From positions 1 through 30,103 of IMG/VR virus record IMGVR_UViG_3300032212_000114: 30,103 bases of DNA; one strand, given 5' to 3'. The stretch is from a virus. Its lineage: Duplodnaviria; Caudoviricetes. The notes under the pieces were generated by a model. The model did not search any database, was not told the origin of the DNA, and was given only the letters and a program-made list of their open reading frames with translations. Position numbers and translations under genes: made by a program. Shown here piece after piece: positions 5,872 through 19,659 of this stretch. The first letter of the stretch is position 1. Every line of letters begins with the position of its first letter.

Positions 5872-6951
5872 TTATGCCGTGCCGTCCGATCCGTAGCTCA
5901 ACTGCCACAAACCATAGGCACCTGCTGCGCGTGCTTCGACAGAGTAGAGAAACATTTTACGCATAAACACGGATTCACTATCGCTGCTGGTCATCGCCAC
6001 AAAGACAGGTTTTTTACGCTCTTGAATCACGAAAGGCTTAACCTGCTTATTGGTGACATGCAGGAACCATGCAGTGGTTGATGTAAGCAGCGGGTTGACT
6101 TTAAGCTTTGCAGTACCACGGTAAGGATTAGGCTTGCCGTCTGCTAACTTCTCGTTCTCTAACAACATACGACCAACCGATTCCAGTGCAGGCGGTACCT
6201 CCAGCACATTCGGCACCAGGCCGAGCTTCTTACCACCATCGCGGGTGAAGCCCATAATTGCCTGACGTGCAACACCGTAACTCGCGCTGGCCAGAGCAAG
6301 CGTCGCATTTGATAGCACTGCGGTACCTTTATTGCTAACGCTCACGGCATCGCCATTTTCATCCTCGACCGGATGATCAGTGTCATAAAAAAATTGTTTG
6401 TCATAACACGGATTAGTAAAGGCACCATTCTTGACTTCCGCATCAAGATCATCATAGAGCAACGCGGCAGATTCACCCGTAGCCGCTGCTTGAACAGAAT
6501 ACCCGCCGAGATTGCCGTCTTCGATATCGTTGCGGTCAACTTCGATGGTGTCTTCATAGTCATCGTTGGCGACGACGTAGTTAAACGCTTTAAGCGAGTT
6601 GATGACTTTGTCACCGACCCACTTCTTCATACCCTTCCAGCCGGTCAACCACTTGTAATCGTTTTCCGAACCTGTAGAGGGCACCAGCATGGTAGTTTCC
6701 TGCCAGGTGCCGGTCACGCCTTCGAACGCTTTCTGGAACGATGTTTTTATGTTCCTGGATAAACCATCAAGGGTATCTTTGTTAATAATTAATCCAGCCC
6801 CGCCCAGAAATGGCATAGCATCGATACCGCCTAGATCATTAAGCGCGTACATGGTGACCGCCTCAGCAGATAGCGGGGCATCGGCAATGGCGGCAAGTGA
6901 GATACCCGCGCAGGCCAATAGCCCAAGGGTAAGCGTTAAAAATCGTTTCAT
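5872..6951 (-). CDS. Major capsid protein (Mu gpT family) with a 53-aa N-terminal signal-peptide-like leader
   Basis: VPST..ENDYKWL, MKKWVGDK, YEDTIEVDRNDIEDGNLG, CYDKQFFYDTDHPV, KPFVIQERKKP, GAYGLWQLSYGS motifs; AGAGGA SD 10 nt before ATG 6951. Confidence 0.95.
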   Translation of the reverse strand: MKRFLTLTLGLLACAGISLAAIADAPLSAEAVTMYALNDLGGIDAMPFLGGAGLIINKDTLDGLSRNIKTSFQKAFEGVTGTWQETTMLVPSTGSENDYKWLTGWKGMKKWVGDKVINSLKAFNYVVANDDYEDTIEVDRNDIEDGNLGGYSVQAAATGESAALLYDDLDAEVKNGAFTNPCYDKQFFYDTDHPVEDENGDAVSVSNKGTAVLSNATLALASASYGVARQAIMGFTRDGGKKLGLVPNVLEVPPALESVGRMLLENEKLADGKPNPYRGTAKLKVNPLLTSTTAWFLHVTNKQVKPFVIQERKKPVFVAMTSSDSESVFMRKMFLYSVEARAAGAYGLWQLSYGSDGTA

Positions 6952-7039
6952 GATGTGTTAATCCTCTATAGTTTTATTGGGGCTGCGTCACCCACTCAGC
7001 CCCAGTTAAGGGGCTTTGCAGGGGGGGGGTAAATGATGG

Positions 7040-7444
7040 TTATTCGATCCAGACACCACCTGAATTAACAGCAACAACGACACCAGCTGGTGAGCGAGTA
7101 CCCACGCCATCGCTACCGGCTACGGTCTGGTCATCGACGATATAACAAACCTGACCGACACCTGCTTGAGCGACGAGATCACCGCCAAGGTTTTTAAAGT
7201 AAAATGCTTTCTTGCGACGAATCAAAACGCGCTTATCACCATCCGCACCACCGGTGTTATCTCGCGCCTCATCAAAGCGACCGAAGTAGGTCAAGTTCAA
7301 TGCGGTGGAGCCGGGCGCGGCATAGCCTGCTGCGTTAAGCACGGCCAGCCCACCGGCGTGACAAACAGCGCCAGCAGCTACGGGTTGCGCAATCAGCTCG
7401 CCATCCTGCATTTTGGTATTGCGGTCTTCAGTTAGTGGTGGCAT
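7040..7444 (-). CDS. Probable capsid decoration/cement protein
   Basis: Gly/Ala-rich 134 aa (LTEDRNT...DNTGGADGD...CYIVDDQTV...GVWIE) between protease and capsid; AGAGGA SD. Confidence 0.72.
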   Translation of the reverse strand: MPPLTEDRNTKMQDGELIAQPVAAGAVCHAGGLAVLNAAGYAAPGSTALNLTYFGRFDEARDNTGGADGDKRVLIRRKKAFYFKNLGGDLVAQAGVGQVCYIVDDQTVAGSDGVGTRSPAGVVVAVNSGGVWIE

Positions 7445-7501: not shown

Positions 7502-8017
7502 TTACGTGCCGTACTTCTTCAGCTCTTCAGCGCTGTTGCCAAACTGGTCCGCCATTGCCTGCTCGGCAGTGTTCAGCGCAGCGCCTTTGTCGCCGTCTGG
7601 TTTTTTATCATCCAGGCCGCTTTTGTCAGTGATCACCGGCTGGCCTTTTACATACTCGTTAAAGAGTTCCAGCCCGCCCTCTGCCTGACACTGCGCGATG
7701 TGATAGTCTTTTGATGCCGGGGTGATCTTGCCGTCTGCCAGCGCCTGATTAATTGCGGTTTCGATTTCACCATCACGGGTCGCTTTGTTAATGCCAGCAA
7801 GCTTATCCTCGGCGGTCTGTGCGCGGTTTAAAGCTGCGTCGTAGTCACCACGCGGAACAAAGGTGTCAAGGCTAGGATTCTTAGCTTGATTCAATGCGGT
7901 GTCGCGATCTTGCTGCAACTTTGTGATCGCTTGATTAACGGCGATCGTTAATTCTGCCTCTGTGCCAGCGTCACTAATACCTAGCGCACGACATTGCGCC
8001 TTTAATAGTTCTAACAT
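7502..8017 (-). CDS. Scaffolding protein Z from an in-frame internal start
   Basis: AGAGGA-CTCCACA-ATG (MLELLKAQCRALG) just after the protease domain, as in Mu I/Z. Confidence 0.7.
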   Translation of the reverse strand: MLELLKAQCRALGISDAGTEAELTIAVNQAITKLQQDRDTALNQAKNPSLDTFVPRGDYDAALNRAQTAEDKLAGINKATRDGEIETAINQALADGKITPASKDYHIAQCQAEGGLELFNEYVKGQPVITDKSGLDDKKPDGDKGAALNTAEQAMADQFGNSAEELKKYGT

Positions 8018-8557
8018 TGTGGAGTCCTCTTGGTTTAAGTGATCACCCTGCGCATGATTGAGGGCGGTAACGAAAAGATTCGGGTTATTGGTCAACCCAA
8101 CAGACTTGATGCCGACGATACGGCGTGTGGCCTTTTCAAAAATAAGCACCGGGGAAAGGTAGCGATACTCTTTACGTTCGACCGAGTTACGGCCGATTTC
8201 ATTCCAGTCTGGGCGTGACCAGATCGACCCGTCTTCGCGGATCTCCATCGCCTTGCCCCATGCGGCGGCCGGGGCATTCTCGCCCTTGGGGGCCTTCAGT
8301 TCGGTGGAGTGCTCAAAATCGAATACCAGGTCACGGCCACGGGATTGCAGCGCGGCGAAATAATCGACGATGCCTTGCGGCTTGTCATTGACCCATGAGC
8401 GGCCATCGATGCCGTCCACATTCTCGCCAGGCGGGATTAGCTGCACCCATTCCGGCAGGGTGCCGTCATCCGGCAGCGCAAAATTGACCGCAACGCACAG
8501 ATGCTCGGTATCGAGTGCTGTATTCAGTGCAATGACAAGCTGGGTTTTTCTGAACAT
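7502..8557 (-). CDS. Prohead protease I with C-terminal scaffold (Mu gpI/Z)
   Basis: WVQLIPPG..GIDGRSW, DFEHST, APAAAW, W...G...V..KEYRYLSPV, GLTNNPNL motifs. Confidence 0.93.
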   Translation of the reverse strand: MFRKTQLVIALNTALDTEHLCVAVNFALPDDGTLPEWVQLIPPGENVDGIDGRSWVNDKPQGIVDYFAALQSRGRDLVFDFEHSTELKAPKGENAPAAAWGKAMEIREDGSIWSRPDWNEIGRNSVERKEYRYLSPVLIFEKATRRIVGIKSVGLTNNPNLFVTALNHAQGDHLNQEDSTMLELLKAQCRALGISDAGTEAELTIAVNQAITKLQQDRDTALNQAKNPSLDTFVPRGDYDAALNRAQTAEDKLAGINKATRDGEIETAINQALADGKITPASKDYHIAQCQAEGGLELFNEYVKGQPVITDKSGLDDKKPDGDKGAALNTAEQAMADQFGNSAEELKKYGT

Positions 8558-11469: not shown

Positions 11470-13080
11470 TTATTTATCCGTTGCATCACCGAGGCCACGC
11501 GCTTTGAATGTCTCAATCGCTAGCCGCTTAATCAATTCACTACTATCCATCTCATCCAGCAAGCCCGGCAAGCCATCGATAAAATCCTGATAACTTTCTG
11601 ACTCATCCGCCAGCCGCTGGATCGGGTCAAAGATCGGCGCGAGCTGCTCCTCCCATTCATCACTGGCAGCATCGGCGAGCCTGTCGACTTCATCCTGTTC
11701 TAAATGCGCTCGGTTGAGTGCGGTGCCGTGGTGTCTACCGCAACCAGGGCAGGCGTGGTTCGCATCCGTGGCGAGCGGTGGGGCAGGGGATGCAGTCTGC
11801 AATACTTCGGCATCTTCGGGCGCGTCCGGCAGGCCGAGCTTGTCACTGATTACCGACTTTTCGACACGCAAACCGAGCGGTACCAGTTTCTCCAGCGCAG
11901 TGGTCAGCGCCTCGATGTCCTCTGGTTCTAATACCTGAATCTGGATAGATGGGTAACGCTCCTGCACGCCGTGATTAAAATCGATATAAGCCTTTACCAG
12001 GTCGCGGTTTAACGTGTATTCAAGCTGCTTTACATCGGCTTTTAAAATGTCCTGCCGTACTTCATCCTGTGCCTCATTGCCACCGAGCTGCCCCGGCGTG
12101 CCTTCGGTACTGGCCACCTGGCCGAGCACTGCTTTAGAGATGAGTTTGTCGAGGTATTCCGCCAGCCCCTGGAACACCTTATCGCCACCACCCTGGTCTG
12201 CACCCGATTCAAAATCGATGCGCATCGAATCGGGAATCACTGCCGCCGCATCGGTACCAATATTGGCGACGGCGTTAATCAGTGTACGGATATCTTCTTC
12301 TTTTGCGGTGCTACCATAGCGGCCGAGGCGTAGTGGCATCCCAAACACTTCAGCGAATGCCAGCCAGTCTGTCAGCGTGTAGCTTTTGCACATATAAGCC
12401 ACCGCAACCAGTCGCGCCAGCCCACCACGGATAGGTGTACCCGACTTGAGGCGTGGTACATGAGTGATGAAACGATAACGCGGCAACCGCGTTGCGGTGC
12501 CGTCCTCATTGCGCAGGCACAGCTTGCGCGGGTTCTTTTTGTCAAATCTAAAAAAGCGCGGATCACGCCAGGCATAGCCGTCGACCTCATCCCACTCACC
12601 ATCTACCTTTTCCATGCGGGTGCGTGGTTGCCATGGTGTTTTGCTGGTATCCCAGTTCATCTCGACGGCGCTATAGCCTTTGCCGAGGCCATCCAGTAGA
12701 TCATCAACCGCAATACCAAAATCGGGATCACGCAGCAGCTCACGCACTTCGTCGGCGAGCTTCACATCTTTGGTATTATCGCTAGCGGCTTCAACTGTTC
12801 GTGGCACTGCGCTGATGGCGCGTTTTCGGGTGCCCAGCACCGAGGCATAATGCGGGTCGCGCTCTTCCATCTCTTCGGCCAACGTTAGATATGCAGTGGC
12901 ATCACCACTGGCGGCATCGCGCAGGATGTTGGCGAGGCGGTGCGGTGTGAGGCCAGATGCAACCGACTCATCATCCCAGCGCTTACTTACGCCGGTCACG
13001 CTGGCGGCGACAGGGCGCGATAAATCAGTGGCCTTTATGGGATTACCGGCATGATCAAGGATTGCAGTAGTTCTTTCCAT
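11470..13080 (-). CDS. Portal protein (Mu gp29, DUF935)
   Basis: GLTPHRLANILRDA, EEMEERDPHY.SVLGTRKRA, W..FAEVFGMPLRLGRY, ISKAVLGQ motifs. Confidence 0.95.
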   Translation of the reverse strand: MERTTAILDHAGNPIKATDLSRPVAASVTGVSKRWDDESVASGLTPHRLANILRDAASGDATAYLTLAEEMEERDPHYASVLGTRKRAISAVPRTVEAASDNTKDVKLADEVRELLRDPDFGIAVDDLLDGLGKGYSAVEMNWDTSKTPWQPRTRMEKVDGEWDEVDGYAWRDPRFFRFDKKNPRKLCLRNEDGTATRLPRYRFITHVPRLKSGTPIRGGLARLVAVAYMCKSYTLTDWLAFAEVFGMPLRLGRYGSTAKEEDIRTLINAVANIGTDAAAVIPDSMRIDFESGADQGGGDKVFQGLAEYLDKLISKAVLGQVASTEGTPGQLGGNEAQDEVRQDILKADVKQLEYTLNRDLVKAYIDFNHGVQERYPSIQIQVLEPEDIEALTTALEKLVPLGLRVEKSVISDKLGLPDAPEDAEVLQTASPAPPLATDANHACPGCGRHHGTALNRAHLEQDEVDRLADAASDEWEEQLAPIFDPIQRLADESESYQDFIDGLPGLLDEMDSSELIKRLAIETFKARGLGDATDK

Positions 13081-15843: not shown

Positions 15844-16122
15844 TTATCGATACCTGGTAACAGTAATTGAAAAGGTACGCTCATCTCGACGACCTGCTGC
15901 CGTTACGATTAAGGCGGTTAATATGCAGACACTGCCAATAACCGCCGCACCGTTTGGTTTAACGAATGCGGCAAGCGATGTGGCGTCAAAGGTTGGGTTA
16001 ACAAGATCAAACGCGGGTGATATTGACCAGGTAACGCCCGTGATGGTGTCGCCGTTTAACCACTTGGTAAGGTCTTTGCCGTAGTCTAGCTCGCCACCGA
16101 GTGTGATGGTGTATGGCTTCAT
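15844..16122 (-). CDS. Probable fibre adaptor protein (Ig-like)
   Basis: LDYGKDLTKWLNGDTITGVTW...TAAGRRDERTFSITV resembles small phage fibre adaptors; ATGA-coupled to the LamG gene. Confidence 0.55.
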   Translation of the reverse strand: MKPYTITLGGELDYGKDLTKWLNGDTITGVTWSISPAFDLVNPTFDATSLAAFVKPNGAAVIGSVCILTALIVTAAGRRDERTFSITVTRYR

Positions 16123-17618
16123 GCGGCTGCAATCCTGTTTTCAAACGGGATGGTTTCTATGCGCTGTTCAAAGCCGACTATCTCGAGACGTTCTCGCGGT
16201 GGTAGGCGGTGCTCACCACCTAGACCAAACATGCCTGCACTGGCTGCCTCTGTGATTGTTTTGCCATCCATCCGCACACGAAAGGTCAACGTGCCATCCG
16301 CTAACGATTCGGCGCTGGTGTCTGCCGATAGTGCAACGCTAATATTTAATGAGCCGTTCACGTTTGTCACTGATACGGTGCCACCGGCAAGCGGTTGAAT
16401 TCTTGCCATGCTGCCGCTTGTGCTACTAGATGCAAGCGTTGCGCCAGTCATCGGGACGGTTGTTATGACCGCTGCATCGGTACTTGATGCTGATGACAGT
16501 GAGCCGAATAGGTTGCCGCTTTCATCGGCGGTAAACGTGCCGCTGCTTGCAGCCTCTGCGATTGTGTTGCCGTCCATGCTCATGCCAATGGTTAGATTAC
16601 CTGTATTAATGGCATCCTGAATGATTGCGCCGGTCATCTCCATACCCGCAGCAAGTGCGGCGGTGGTGATCGCTTCGCTGATTATATCTCCCGAGATATT
16701 AATGTTAGCTGACATTACACCGCCAACAGTAGAGATGCTGGCAGTGCTGCCCGCTACAGGTACGTTGCTTACGTATGATCCAGCGGCAGTGTTTAGTGAT
16801 GCAGTGACGCCAGCCAAGGACACCGGTGAAGTAGTCCCACCGCTGTCTTGTGTGATAGTCAAACGGGGGCGTGGCCGGAATATTCCATAAGGGTTAGCAA
16901 ATAACTCTCGTGCTTCTCGTGCAGTGACTGCTCTATTCATCACCAAAGGTAAATCTATTAAGCCATCAAAGTTACGACTCGAATTAGTACCTACACCACC
17001 ACCAGATTTTCCAGAGTTACCGATCATTAATGGATAACTTGCTGATTCGATTAACCCGCTAACTACAAACGTTGAAACTAACGATCCATTCACATACAAA
17101 CGCATATTTTCGCCGTCGTAAGATCCTAATACATGCGTCCATTCGTTCAATGGAGCGCCGAACGAGCTATTGCAGTTGTATATTGAACCAGAAATTCTTA
17201 GGCGAAAGCCTACAGCTGATGGGTATAGCTGAAGTACATATAGTGATGAGGAGGATGACGCGCCGTTGTATTTACATATTACTTTTCGGCCGCTGGAGCT
17301 GTTAGACTCAGGGTACACCCACGCACTAAGTGTTATATGTTGATCTATTTCATGCGTTGGTGAAGATGGTATTTCTACACCCTGGGCTAGCGCTGAATCA
17401 AAACGAAGTACAGTACCTCGTTTTGAGCGCACCCACTCTGCGCCGACCACCAACCCTTTATTATCATATGACGACACATCGTGCGCTCTATTACTGCCGC
17501 CCTCATTTAGTGGCAGGCAGATAACAACGCTATCTCTGATGCCTGATGCAAGCTCATATCCATCATTAAATGCGGGCTTTTGTGCATCATAGGAACTTAA
17601 TGCTTTAACATAAGACAT
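16119..17618 (-). CDS. LamG-like jelly-roll domain protein with a 20-aa-repeat stalk (putative virion fibre/adhesin)
   Basis: LPLNEGG..AHDVS, ITLSAWVYP, NEWTHV..SYDG..MRLYVNG, NFDGLID motifs, then ~10 Gly/Ala/Ser/Thr-rich 20-aa repeats. Confidence 0.8.
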   Translation of the reverse strand: MSYVKALSSYDAQKPAFNDGYELASGIRDSVVICLPLNEGGSNRAHDVSSYDNKGLVVGAEWVRSKRGTVLRFDSALAQGVEIPSSPTHEIDQHITLSAWVYPESNSSSGRKVICKYNGASSSSSLYVLQLYPSAVGFRLRISGSIYNCNSSFGAPLNEWTHVLGSYDGENMRLYVNGSLVSTFVVSGLIESASYPLMIGNSGKSGGGVGTNSSRNFDGLIDLPLVMNRAVTAREARELFANPYGIFRPRPRLTITQDSGGTTSPVSLAGVTASLNTAAGSYVSNVPVAGSTASISTVGGVMSANINISGDIISEAITTAALAAGMEMTGAIIQDAINTGNLTIGMSMDGNTIAEAASSGTFTADESGNLFGSLSSASSTDAAVITTVPMTGATLASSSTSGSMARIQPLAGGTVSVTNVNGSLNISVALSADTSAESLADGTLTFRVRMDGKTITEAASAGMFGLGGEHRLPPRERLEIVGFEQRIETIPFENRIAAA

Positions 17619-17621
17619 TTA

Positions 17622-18071
17622 TCACGCAGCCTTTGGCCCTGATGTCACGGGCGTTACGGCGACTGTCCAGCCTGGTGATAGTGATTGACCGGATTGATTC
17701 TCAAGATAAATATCAAAATCATCTGGTACATCATGTAGATATATTTGTTGATATTGCGTTGCTGTAACGTCGTTAAGGTTGATAATCCATATTCGCCACG
17801 GTGTATAGTTTGCGTCTGGTGCATCACTATCATTAACACCGTCAATATTCAGTAGCCGCAGATGCACATAGATGACGCCATTTGCTGGCGCAATAGAAAA
17901 AGCACCCGAGAAGTCAAGTATTACATCATGAGCACCATCTCCATCGGTAAGCTTGTTGTAGCTTGCGTCATTCGTCACGCCAAATGCTGCATCAGCCAAT
18001 GAAGTTCCTGCCGACTCTAAAACCTTTCTTGTGCCTTTTTTTCTGACCGAGTCATTCACTTCGATTGCCAT
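17622..18071 (-). CDS. Hypothetical beta-rich protein in the fibre module
   Basis: 149-aa ORF tightly packed in the operon; C-terminal IYLENQSGQSL..GWTVAVTP. Confidence 0.6.
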   Translation of the reverse strand: MAIEVNDSVRKKGTRKVLESAGTSLADAAFGVTNDASYNKLTDGDGAHDVILDFSGAFSIAPANGVIYVHLRLLNIDGVNDSDAPDANYTPWRIWIINLNDVTATQYQQIYLHDVPDDFDIYLENQSGQSLSPGWTVAVTPVTSGPKAA

Positions 18072-18073
18072 AG

Positions 18074-18502
18074 CTACACCCTTAATCCATACGCGTTATT
18101 TTTTTTCTCACGAGCATTTTGCAGGTGTCCTATTTTTAGCCCAGGGTACATGTCTTTCTTTACTACACGCAGGGCAATGATTTCATCACGCAATTGCAAG
18201 CTAATGTACCCGTTATCCGCCATGCTATTTAACAGGCCAATGCTTTCATTGTTATTTAACTCTATGCCACTTCCATTAAACCAATCGAGCACATCACCCG
18301 GCATGCCACCATCCGCAACCGCTGCTTTTAATGCACCCTGAAATTGCATCGCCTTACCAATCCCCACACGACTTGCCAGTGCAACATCGTTAAGACGAAC
18401 ATCAATAATTACATCGACTTTTTTATTCGACATAATCGCGAAGGCTTCATCTAGTGTTCCGCCGGGATCATCCTGCGCTAGTTGTTGATAGTTAACCCTC
18501 AT
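18074..18502 (-). CDS. Hypothetical protein in the fibre module
   Basis: 142-aa ORF abutting both neighbours. Confidence 0.6.
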   Translation of the reverse strand: MRVNYQQLAQDDPGGTLDEAFAIMSNKKVDVIIDVRLNDVALASRVGIGKAMQFQGALKAAVADGGMPGDVLDWFNGSGIELNNNESIGLLNSMADNGYISLQLRDEIIALRVVKKDMYPGLKIGHLQNAREKKNNAYGLRV

Positions 18503-19171
18503 TTATTTATCAACCTGGATAACTAACCCACTCGGGCCAAACTTATTACCCGTTGAGCCAAGGCCAATCTGAATCGGGCCAGCGCTTAATGTGTTTCGCT
18601 CGCACAAGTTACCGGCCACGGCTTCATCAAACCAGCCGAACATAAAGATAAAGCCCGTTGTGTAGGCTTCCGTCGGCGCATCGGGGAAAGTGACATCCAC
18701 GTTGTTTTCAATGGTTGCGTCGGTACCGCTGCTGGCGGCGGTTGTGCCCGCGCCTTGAGTACCTGAAAAGTTGGTCATATTGCATTCAACTGCTACCCGC
18801 GCGTAATCAGCGCCAGCAGGTTCAATAAATGCGGTGCCGTTTTCGATATTGGTGTATTGCTCGGTTAACGTTGCGGCGCCATCAACAATCACCTCATCAT
18901 TAACGCCTGGGTAAGATGGCTGCGCTACTGCCAACGCACCGGCACCGGCTGTTACCTGGTACAGCTTCCAGCCCGCTGCGGTATTAACTGCGACGGTATC
19001 ATTGAGCTCGACCACCAAGCTATTTTCGCGTCGATGGTCAACCACACCGAGCGCGTAATGGATATTAATGGGCGCTGATACCGAAATGGTTTTTCCGCCA
19101 TCCATGGTGATGGGTTGGCCGCGTTTTAATAGATCGGCTACTCTGTTTTCCCAGTAGTTAGTCATACTCAT
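18503..19171 (-). CDS. Probable phage fibre/structural protein
   Basis: MTNYWENRVADLLKRGQ, EP.GADYARVAV, IENNVDVTFP, FDEAVAGNL motifs recall a small phage fibre family; ATGA overlap with the lysin stop. Confidence 0.65.
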   Translation of the reverse strand: MSMTNYWENRVADLLKRGQPITMDGGKTISVSAPINIHYALGVVDHRRENSLVVELNDTVAVNTAAGWKLYQVTAGAGALAVAQPSYPGVNDEVIVDGAATLTEQYTNIENGTAFIEPAGADYARVAVECNMTNFSGTQGAGTTAASSGTDATIENNVDVTFPDAPTEAYTTGFIFMFGWFDEAVAGNLCERNTLSAGPIQIGLGSTGNKFGPSGLVIQVDK

Positions 19172-19659
19172 TGTGTCTCGTCCTCAGATAGTAGATGGCC
19201 ATCGGGCGCAGCCATATTGCCAGCCAGCCATGCCTTCACATCGAACCCTGGGCAGGTCTTGCCTTTATTGATTTGGTTGTGCCCGAAAACCTGGGCACTC
19301 TTAAAGCGGCTCTTCATGCCGGTGACTATTATGCGCAGCGCGTGCCATTGCTCTTTTGTATATTGATCTGTGCCAATTAAACAGATAGCGATTGATTTAT
19401 GATTATGGCCACGCGCATGTGCGCCAGCTTCACCAAGGCCACGGCAGGACTGTGCTGAGCCTGATGTGGGAATAACAAAGTGATAACCAATGTGGGGCAT
19501 GTGCTGCGCGTTGTGGCCAATTAGGCGTGGGTCTCGCTTAAAGCCTCGCTCACTGTGCCAGCGATCGACATCTTCCGCGATGTGCCAGCGGCCGTTGGGC
19601 GTGGCTGAACAATGGATGATGATCTCTTTGACGCGATTGGGTAGGAGTGGCCTGCTCAT
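19168..19659 (-). CDS. Endolysin, N-acetylmuramoyl-L-alanine amidase (T7 lysozyme-like)
   Basis: IIIHCSAT, IGYHFVI, GAHARGHN..SIAICLIG, GHNQ...KTCPGFDV zinc-amidase motifs. Confidence 0.93.
   Translation of the reverse strand: MSRPLLPNRVKEIIIHCSATPNGRWHIAEDVDRWHSERGFKRDPRLIGHNAQHMPHIGYHFVIPTSGSAQSCRGLGEAGAHARGHNHKSIAICLIGTDQYTKEQWHALRIIVTGMKSRFKSAQVFGHNQINKGKTCPGFDVKAWLAGNMAAPDGHLLSEDETQ

Follow-up and report, generated by a model that had tools for sequence, protein, structure and literature searches.

The gpT gene examined here is that of a Mu-like capsid protein with a real, selected and optional membrane-type leader. The DNA analysed, called the window throughout, is a 30.1-kb virus record of a Mu-like phage. 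It contains Pfam matches to transposase, Mor, GemA, amidase, DUF2730, terminase, portal, gpF, gpI, gpT and contractile tail proteins, all on the minus strand, and has named relatives in the Beta-, Gamma- and Zetaproteobacteria, Thermodesulfobacteriota and Nitrospirota. The first-ranked reading, which we infer and to which we give a probability of about one half, is that capsid subunits are tethered to the membrane by the leader and released by cleavage: a membrane hairpin of the Sec/YidC type, predicted from sequence, would hold the subunits with the capsid domain on the cytoplasmic side and would be cut off near the G53|L54 bond.

The capsid gene and the anatomy of its leader

The open reading frame at 5872-6951 on the minus strand encodes a Mu-like gpT capsid protein of 359 amino acids. 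The PF10124 profile gave a score of 264.6 bits against a curated cut-off of 20.1 (E 1.5e-78) with the match starting at residue 62, while the match to phrog_371 started at residue 55. The major head protein of D3112 (orf35) was 54% identical and collinear, with its Met1 aligned with residue 54. The structure was modelled with AlphaFold2 using a 140-row alignment (mean pLDDT 90.8), and the best fold matches of the model were Mu 9jod_A and the JBD30 procapsid 8rkx_L. Mu gpT, JBD30 gp38 and D3112 orf35 belong to the same PF10124 family, have the HK97 fold and share with the window the gene order of protease/scaffold, structural protein and capsid. These three proteins have no leader and start at the residue equivalent to Leu54, in agreement with the first-pass annotation, which had described Mu gpT as leaderless and the gpT-like sequence of the window as starting at a codon other than ATG. 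Codon 54 is TTA (6792-6790) and occupies the Met1 position of the leaderless relatives. The head genes of the window used in this analysis are listed below.

5872..6792, minus strand: HK97-fold major capsid domain (gpT, residues 54-359), identified by PF10124, phrog_371, collinearity with D3112 orf35 and fold matches
7040..7444, minus strand: virion structural protein gene (phrog_1731), adjoining the capsid gene upstream, without a leader
7502..8557, minus strand: gpI prohead protease/scaffold with five ALN repeats and no hydrophobic signal, a candidate leader-removing enzyme
11470..13080, minus strand: portal protein, without a hydrophobic signal

Other features of the gene setting were observed. 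The C-terminal region of gpT (5872-6300, minus strand) consists of two blocks that are collinear with D3112 and in the opposite order to those of Mu and JBD30; both block topologies coexist in PF10124, and leaders were found on both. Between the amidase endolysin and DUF2730 (15844-19659, minus strand) the window contains a fibre-like module with Pfam Gp80, laminin G and Gp77 of podophage GP4, without a holin-like gene, and a similar insert was present in two related loci (L241 and L271). At a further locus (L157) the 283-base gap between the structural-protein gene and gpT encodes an apparent HU/IHF-type protein within the head operon, a family assignment that we presume.

The anatomy of the leader was examined by our own pattern counts in 75 distinct leaders of 34-60 residues, with near-duplicates kept. 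A held-out set of 28 further leaders, three of them identical to each other, was taken from a later search, and 113 leaders were available overall. The leader of the window was divided into four segments.

6943..6951, minus strand: n-region Met-Lys-Arg (residues 1-3); net charge of at least +1 in 74/75 leaders
6883..6942, minus strand: hydrophobic helix h1 (residues 4-23), with A21-I22-A23 at its end as a possible site for signal peptidase I; AlphaFold2 helix at 2-23 (pLDDT about 85)
6820..6882, minus strand: acidic linker (residues 24-44), a predicted periplasmic loop holding Met34 and an unconserved ALN; charge of zero or below in 75/75
6784..6819, minus strand: Gly-rich hydrophobic block h2 (residues 45-56) with the G53|L54 junction; identified by junction conservation

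The basic n-region, the hydrophobic core, the A21-I22-A23 sequence and an ALN motif at residues 36-38 had all been noted on first reading of the DNA and are present as described. The crude insertion energy of h1 was below zero in 73/75 leaders, making this segment membrane-competent (KD15 median 2.5), and A-x-A followed h1 in 56/75 leaders compared with 28.5 in shuffled sequences (at most 43 in 500 shuffles). The same counts gave the pattern of a Sec/signal peptidase I signal peptide, with a basic n-region, a hydrophobic h-region and small residues at -3 and -1. The first eight residues of the 113 leaders contained 208 Lys/Arg and 5 Asp/Glu, while the positions after residue 25 contained 27 Lys/Arg and 197 Asp/Glu. 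A basic start followed by a hydrophobic helix and an acidic stretch is the established rule for a signal helix with its N-terminus inside and an exported loop, and, as far as sequence can tell, the charge order of the leader is of this pattern.

Leader sequences varied widely among relatives, and their best-conserved part was the second hydrophobic block ending in Gly53. The consensus across the junction of the 75 leaders was [LGM]-P-x-[ILF]-G-x-[GA]-G | [LM]-[IL]-[VI]-N, with Gly at -1 in 69/75, Leu or Met at +1 in 73/75 and Gly at -4 in 51/75. The held-out leaders had Gly at -1 in 26/28 and Leu or Met at +1 in 28/28.

When the leader was compared with a two-span membrane hairpin by sequence criteria, the first span and the acidic exported loop were found, and a second span with a basic flank was not. 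The insertion energy of h2 was below zero in 1/75 leaders (median +3.1, window +4.7) on a crude scale that ignores helix pairing, and on this scale h2 of the window inserted worse than the best segment of its own capsid core. The uncharged run of h2 in the window is only 13 residues, and residues 39-57 were unstructured in the AlphaFold2 model, following a low-confidence helix at 29-38. In leader-bearing cores, the first ten residues past the junction showed no extra Lys/Arg; Asp/Glu occurred there in 27/39 leader-bearing and 29/110 leaderless loci, a difference that was not significant on independent pairs. Because h2 inserted in a single leader and its flank is not basic, it may need h1 to insert, or may be a protease motif rather than a span.

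Two motifs proposed in the first-pass annotation did not hold up. A lipobox-like LLAC had been suggested, but the lipobox pattern, which has the consensus [LVI][ASTVIG][GAS]C at the end of the h-region, occurred in 4/75 leaders and not in that of the window, where Cys14 lies in the middle of the helix; a lipoprotein (signal peptidase II) signal was therefore rejected. The ALN at residues 36-38 had been put forward as a cleavage site. The motif A[LVIM]N was found in only 5/75 leaders, and cleavage at this position fails as a general rule, although it may take place in the phage of the window.

A C-x-x-C-H sequence was noticed after the fact in the linkers of two distant gpT leaders, at residues 90-94 of P0121, which has a leader of 120 residues, and at residues 43-47 of P0222. 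This is a haem motif that is known to be used only outside the cytoplasmic membrane. Its occurrence in 2/113 leaders compares with 0.007 expected from composition, the two being single protein records that are possibly related to each other. A search for the motif in the linkers of P0121 relatives returned only P0121 itself among 115 candidates.

Probable translation and distribution of the leader

Start-site scoring and selection both indicate that the leader is likely to be translated. The ribosome-binding site assigned to the leader ATG is as follows.

6962..6967, minus strand: Shine-Dalgarno sequence AGAGGA serving the leader ATG; the surrounding RNA is A/U-rich and open (opening energy 2.7 kcal/mol)

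This sequence (6967-6962) had been called the best Shine-Dalgarno of the gene, which by pairing it is not: the anti-SD pairing of Met1 (-5.8 kcal/mol) is weaker than that of Met34 (-8.1) or Met46 (-7.0). The two internal sites, however, lie in folded RNA with opening energies of 11.9 and 10.4 kcal/mol, respectively. The AGAGGA motif and the open hydrophobic upstream frame were both kept in the 87% and 72% relatives. Across 39 leader loci, the codon at the old start, where leaderless relatives have Met1, was ATG in 16, CTG in 15, TTG in 3, CTC in 2 and CTA, CTT and TTA in one each, with a median anti-SD pairing of -2.3 kcal/mol compared with -7.9 kcal/mol at the leader ATG. Leaderless loci started at ATG (108) or GTG (2) with a median pairing of -9.0 kcal/mol. 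When pairing and accessibility were combined, the leader ATG outscored every internal start in 40/40 loci; this test carries a slight bias, since the strongest pairing decided which ATG was taken as the leader start and since RNA within coding sequence tends to be more folded, and it is therefore supportive rather than proof. The pooled pN/pS of seven disjoint pairs was 0.48 for the leader and 0.19 for the core, indicating purifying selection on the leader, and the leader dN/dS between the window and its relative L003 was 0.22, although values of 0.85 or above were obtained in 3/13 pairs computed.

It is very improbable that the leader is unmade or a minor form, with translation of the capsid protein beginning at Met34, at Met46 or at a near-cognate codon. 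The strong pairing of both internal sites in the window, the presence of Met34 in the two closest relatives and the ATG found at the junction codon in 16/39 leader loci would all suit such a start. They are set against the folded RNA around Met34 and Met46, the purifying selection on the leader, the preference for the leader ATG in every locus, even allowing for its small bias, and the 87% relative, in which the Shine-Dalgarno of Met34 is lost (-1.7 kcal/mol) and position 46 is Leu.

Upstream of the capsid ribosome-binding site, positions 6979-7015 of the window can form two mutually exclusive G/C stems that share one arm, pairing either 6979-6985 with 6997-7003 or 6998-7003 with 7010-7015, as read by eye from the RNA folding output.

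The occurrence of the leader was examined at the protein and DNA levels. A hydrophobic extension was present in 42 of the best 120 protein matches, the protein of the window included, a share that is biased upward because the search scored the leader itself. A search with the core only, using 50%-identity representatives, gave a hydrophobic extension in 9/142 sequences with an alignable N-terminus, two of these being of the Mu-order type. Of 164 loci examined as DNA, one truncated locus was left out, and merging of identical cores then gave a set of 150, of which 39 had a leader, 110 had none and one was cut by a contig end. Aligning homologues had been suggested as a way to find a clade in which the leader is conserved; the leader recurs, but is scattered over the tree rather than confined to one clade. 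On a FastTree phylogeny of 149 cores, the leader label required 19 changes, at least nine of them forced by well-supported branches, and recombination between capsid genes could lie behind part of these. The leader is an optional cassette, since leaderless D3112 is a viable phage, and it is best regarded as an optional aid because leaderless phages occur throughout the tree.

The gap between the upstream gene and the start codon was alike with and without a leader (p 0.61), its median being 39 bases in 39 leader-bearing loci and 52 bases in 103 leaderless ones. Decayed leader remnants were looked for in the 14 longest gaps of leaderless loci, and none was seen. No partner gene travelled with the leader among 55 families within 10 kb (lowest uncorrected p 0.0056) or among 63 families in the 20 kb upstream (lowest uncorrected p 0.02), and the top capsid columns, among those listed, that appeared to co-vary with the leader did not hold on independent pairs. 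In a search for cultured phages with a leader, the best 25 of 88 records all aligned from residue 54. A search of the ESM Atlas with residues 1-75 gave no usable match by features and nothing informative by structure.

The apparently leaderless P0007 (77% identical, 306 amino acids) has a cluster mate, P0271 (353 amino acids), with a 47-residue leader before the same Met. The two entries represent one prophage protein of the Solemya pervernicosa gill symbiont, annotated either from the junction Met or with the leader, and the leader is therefore under-counted in databases. An ATG at the junction codon thus acts as an annotation trap in which gene callers can drop the leader, and its spread is probably wider than the counts suggest. 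The other close short entry, P0008 (76%), is known here from its protein record alone.

Proposed membrane tethering and release, and competing explanations

By the established rules for signal peptides, SRP/Sec or YidC would take up h1 in an N-in orientation, the acidic linker would be carried across into the periplasm, and signal peptidase I may cleave behind A21-I22-A23. Less securely, h2 would bring the chain back by packing on h1. A cut at or near Gly53|Leu54 before head maturation would then generate the N-terminus of the leaderless relatives. The capsid domain would stay in the cytoplasm, because gpT has to come together with the scaffold and the portal, neither of which carries a hydrophobic signal. 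The likely purpose of such an arrangement would be to hold new subunits on the membrane, where proheads would nucleate on the portal, and to prevent early polymerisation. The interpretation given by the first-pass annotation thus survives in its translated, conserved, membrane-type leader, borne out by selection, start scoring and homologues, and loses the ALN cut and the lipobox.

The hairpin is favoured by the charge pattern, the membrane-competent h1, the A-x-A enrichment and the C-x-x-C-H in two linkers, while removal of the leader is favoured by the junction, the best-conserved part of the leader, which coincides exactly with Met1 of the leaderless relatives, and by JBD30, in which the N-terminal arm forms paired hooks at the pseudo-twofold axes of the mature head (PMC11445458). 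Against the hairpin, h2 is a poor span that was unstructured in the model, and the post-junction residues are not basic as stop-transfer would predict. In addition, 110/149 relatives and the cultured phage D3112 manage without a leader, and three of the 13 pairs have the high leader dN/dS values given above.

The candidate enzymes for the junction cut are the phage gpI and a host protease. By a crude sorting, gpI proteins fell into types with ALN, AAL/AAC or VAK repeats, which look like type-specific self-cleavage motifs and would mark cleavage sites. Leaders were found with 23/58 ALN-type, 12/30 AAL/AAC-type and 1/31 VAK-type proteins, the scarcity in the last group having a p of 2e-4 when kinship is ignored. 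The G|L/M junction was identical with ALN-type and AAL/AAC-type gpI, and gpI is therefore neither named nor excluded as the enzyme. A host rhomboid was also considered. The rhomboid substrate motif, Large-x-x-small|x-large, was found with the cut between -2 and -1 in 62/75 leaders and with the cut at the junction in 11/75, as raw counts uncorrected for chance. The PF01694 rhomboid was detected in 9/20 genomes with leader-bearing prophages and 26/30 with leaderless ones, many of the assemblies being incomplete, and none was found in the complete chromosome of the L104 host. As this difference (p 0.004) is in the wrong direction and confounded by taxonomy, a host rhomboid is not supported as the releasing enzyme. 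The 11/20 hosts in which PF01694 was not found (L099, L104, L107, L111, L114, L116, L120, L126, L133, L135 and L144) are mostly Betaproteobacteria, probably a taxonomic effect.

Several features of the leader could also be read as ordinary Sec export, with signal peptidase I cutting h1, h2 failing to halt transfer, and some of the capsid pool reaching the periplasm or stalling the translocon as a decoy, sink or host shut-off, while heads are built from the fraction that escapes. This is the form taken here by the earlier suggestion that a fraction of the pool is exported, and we consider it unlikely. It would account for the signal-like n/h/c pattern with its A-x-A enrichment, the acidic early mature region, the weakness of h2 as a stop-transfer segment on the crude scale and the C-x-x-C-H linkers. 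The scaffold/protease and portal are cytoplasmic, however, there is no usable internal start to supply a leaderless form, purifying selection on the capsid domain is strong (pN/pS 0.19) and export alone leaves the fixed Gly at the Met1 junction unexplained. Export of the whole pool is unlikely because the protease/scaffold and portal carry no hydrophobic signal. Similarly doubtful is a soluble pro-peptide like the HK97 delta domain, with the leader held inside the prohead or on a chaperone or scaffold, never entering a membrane and removed by gpI. The strict basic-hydrophobic-acidic order is a membrane-topology signature that a soluble scaffold does not need, h1 is membrane-competent in nearly all leaders, and gpI is kept in 24/24 leader-bearing and 24/24 leaderless genomes. 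Nevertheless, VAK-type gpI seldom goes with a leader, and a capsid leader without a clear use has been described in Staphylococcus phage 80alpha (PMC5744158). The leader also sits on the N-terminal arm, which in JBD30 is helical in the procapsid and changes its fold during maturation (PMC11445458).

It could instead be the released leader that does the work, as a small membrane peptide produced once per capsid subunit and acting as a lysis timer or exclusion factor, but this is improbable. The amidase of the window has no holin-like gene beside it, and Mu itself is reported without a holin in the available text of PMC9239132. Small membrane ORFs were nevertheless present in the lysis region of 18/20 leader-bearing and 17/19 leaderless genomes, and multi-span ORFs in 4/20 and 5/19, respectively, after 9/48 regions without usable bounds were left out; a role of the leader as holin substitute is therefore not supported. 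Several leader-bearing phages also keep a holin-like, endolysin and spanin-like set, and the wide variation of leader sequences argues against a peptide with a function of its own. Finally, there is very little to recommend a leader, or linker and h2, that stays on the subunit to give membrane-tied or lipid-enclosing heads. In its favour, the junction cut has only candidate proteases, and uncleavable 80alpha capsid protein gives viable phage (PMC5744158); on the other side, the junction reproduces the leaderless N-terminus exactly, and records rated 100% complete measured 37.1, 37.4 and 39.0 kb with a leader and 37.0, 37.6 and 36.3 kb without. From these equal lengths (three against three) no loss of head volume is apparent and there is no sign of lipid inside the head.

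Relation to known systems and significance

The capsid proteins of tailed phages are taken as soluble cytoplasmic proteins, and the leader described here is a variant of the capsid pro-peptide theme. The delta domain of HK97 and the capsid pro-peptides of T4 and T5 are soluble pieces that serve as the scaffold or work together with it, and the phage protease cuts them. They resemble the leader in being N-terminal extensions of an HK97-fold capsid protein whose removal is expected at maturation, but the leader of the window has the charge and hydrophobicity of a signal peptide, and a separate scaffold gene is kept. M13 procoat (the gp8 precursor) has a full membrane helix as its second segment, and this segment makes up the coat protein of the filamentous phage. 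The order of elements in procoat and in Sec/signal peptidase I signals, with a basic start, a hydrophobic signal, A-x-A, an acidic exported stretch and a second hydrophobic segment, is the same as in the window, whose second segment is however short and Gly-rich and precedes a 306-residue HK97 domain that assembles in the cytoplasm.

The capsid and scaffold leaders of 80alpha are described in the available text as 13-14 residues long and cut by the host enzyme Prp at F|A, the capsid leader cleavage being dispensable for viable phage (PMC5744158). The likeness is an N-terminal capsid leader, whose removal in the window might likewise be by a non-phage enzyme; the 80alpha leader is shared with the scaffold and with ribosomal protein L27 and has no membrane-type helix (PMC5744158), whereas leaders of the window type are 34-60 residues long, hydrophobic, end in Gly and are absent from the scaffold. 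The leader does not fit the 80alpha/Prp type, as there is no F|A junction and the gpI N-termini have no such leader. SPP1 offers a comparison of another kind. In a 2026 tomography study, SPP1 and other procapsids begin their assembly on the inner side of the cytoplasmic membrane, and the SPP1 precursors form there in a portal-dependent manner (PMC13212656). The tether in SPP1 is thus portal-dependent, while here a candidate tether is present on every capsid subunit.

The open-access full texts searched gave no account of an HK97-fold capsid protein with a signal-like leader, nor of the cleavage of such a leader. It is quite possible, although we advance it tentatively, that in many tailed phages the HK97-fold capsid protein is an integral inner-membrane precursor made by a portable cassette of 35-60 residues, comprising a signal helix, a periplasmic loop and a Gly-rich return segment, and is freed at Gly by a host or phage protease. 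As the leader is present or absent between near relatives, natural pairs with and without it are available, and D3112 provides a leaderless laboratory counterpart for comparison, together with cultured lysogens. Among the cultured, non-pathogenic hosts that the records name for leader-bearing prophages are Geomonas limicola Red745, Propionivibrio dicarboxylicus DSM 5885, Nitrosovibrio sp. Nv4 and Desulfocurvibacter africanus. According to the tomography study (PMC13212656), it is not known by what mechanism proheads become attached to the membrane, a question on which the leader may bear. If the proposal is true, it would mean that heads are assembled through Sec/YidC, a route known for filamentous phages and enveloped animal viruses and not for Caudoviricetes, and the reason why proheads arise at the membrane could be approached genetically through the leader.
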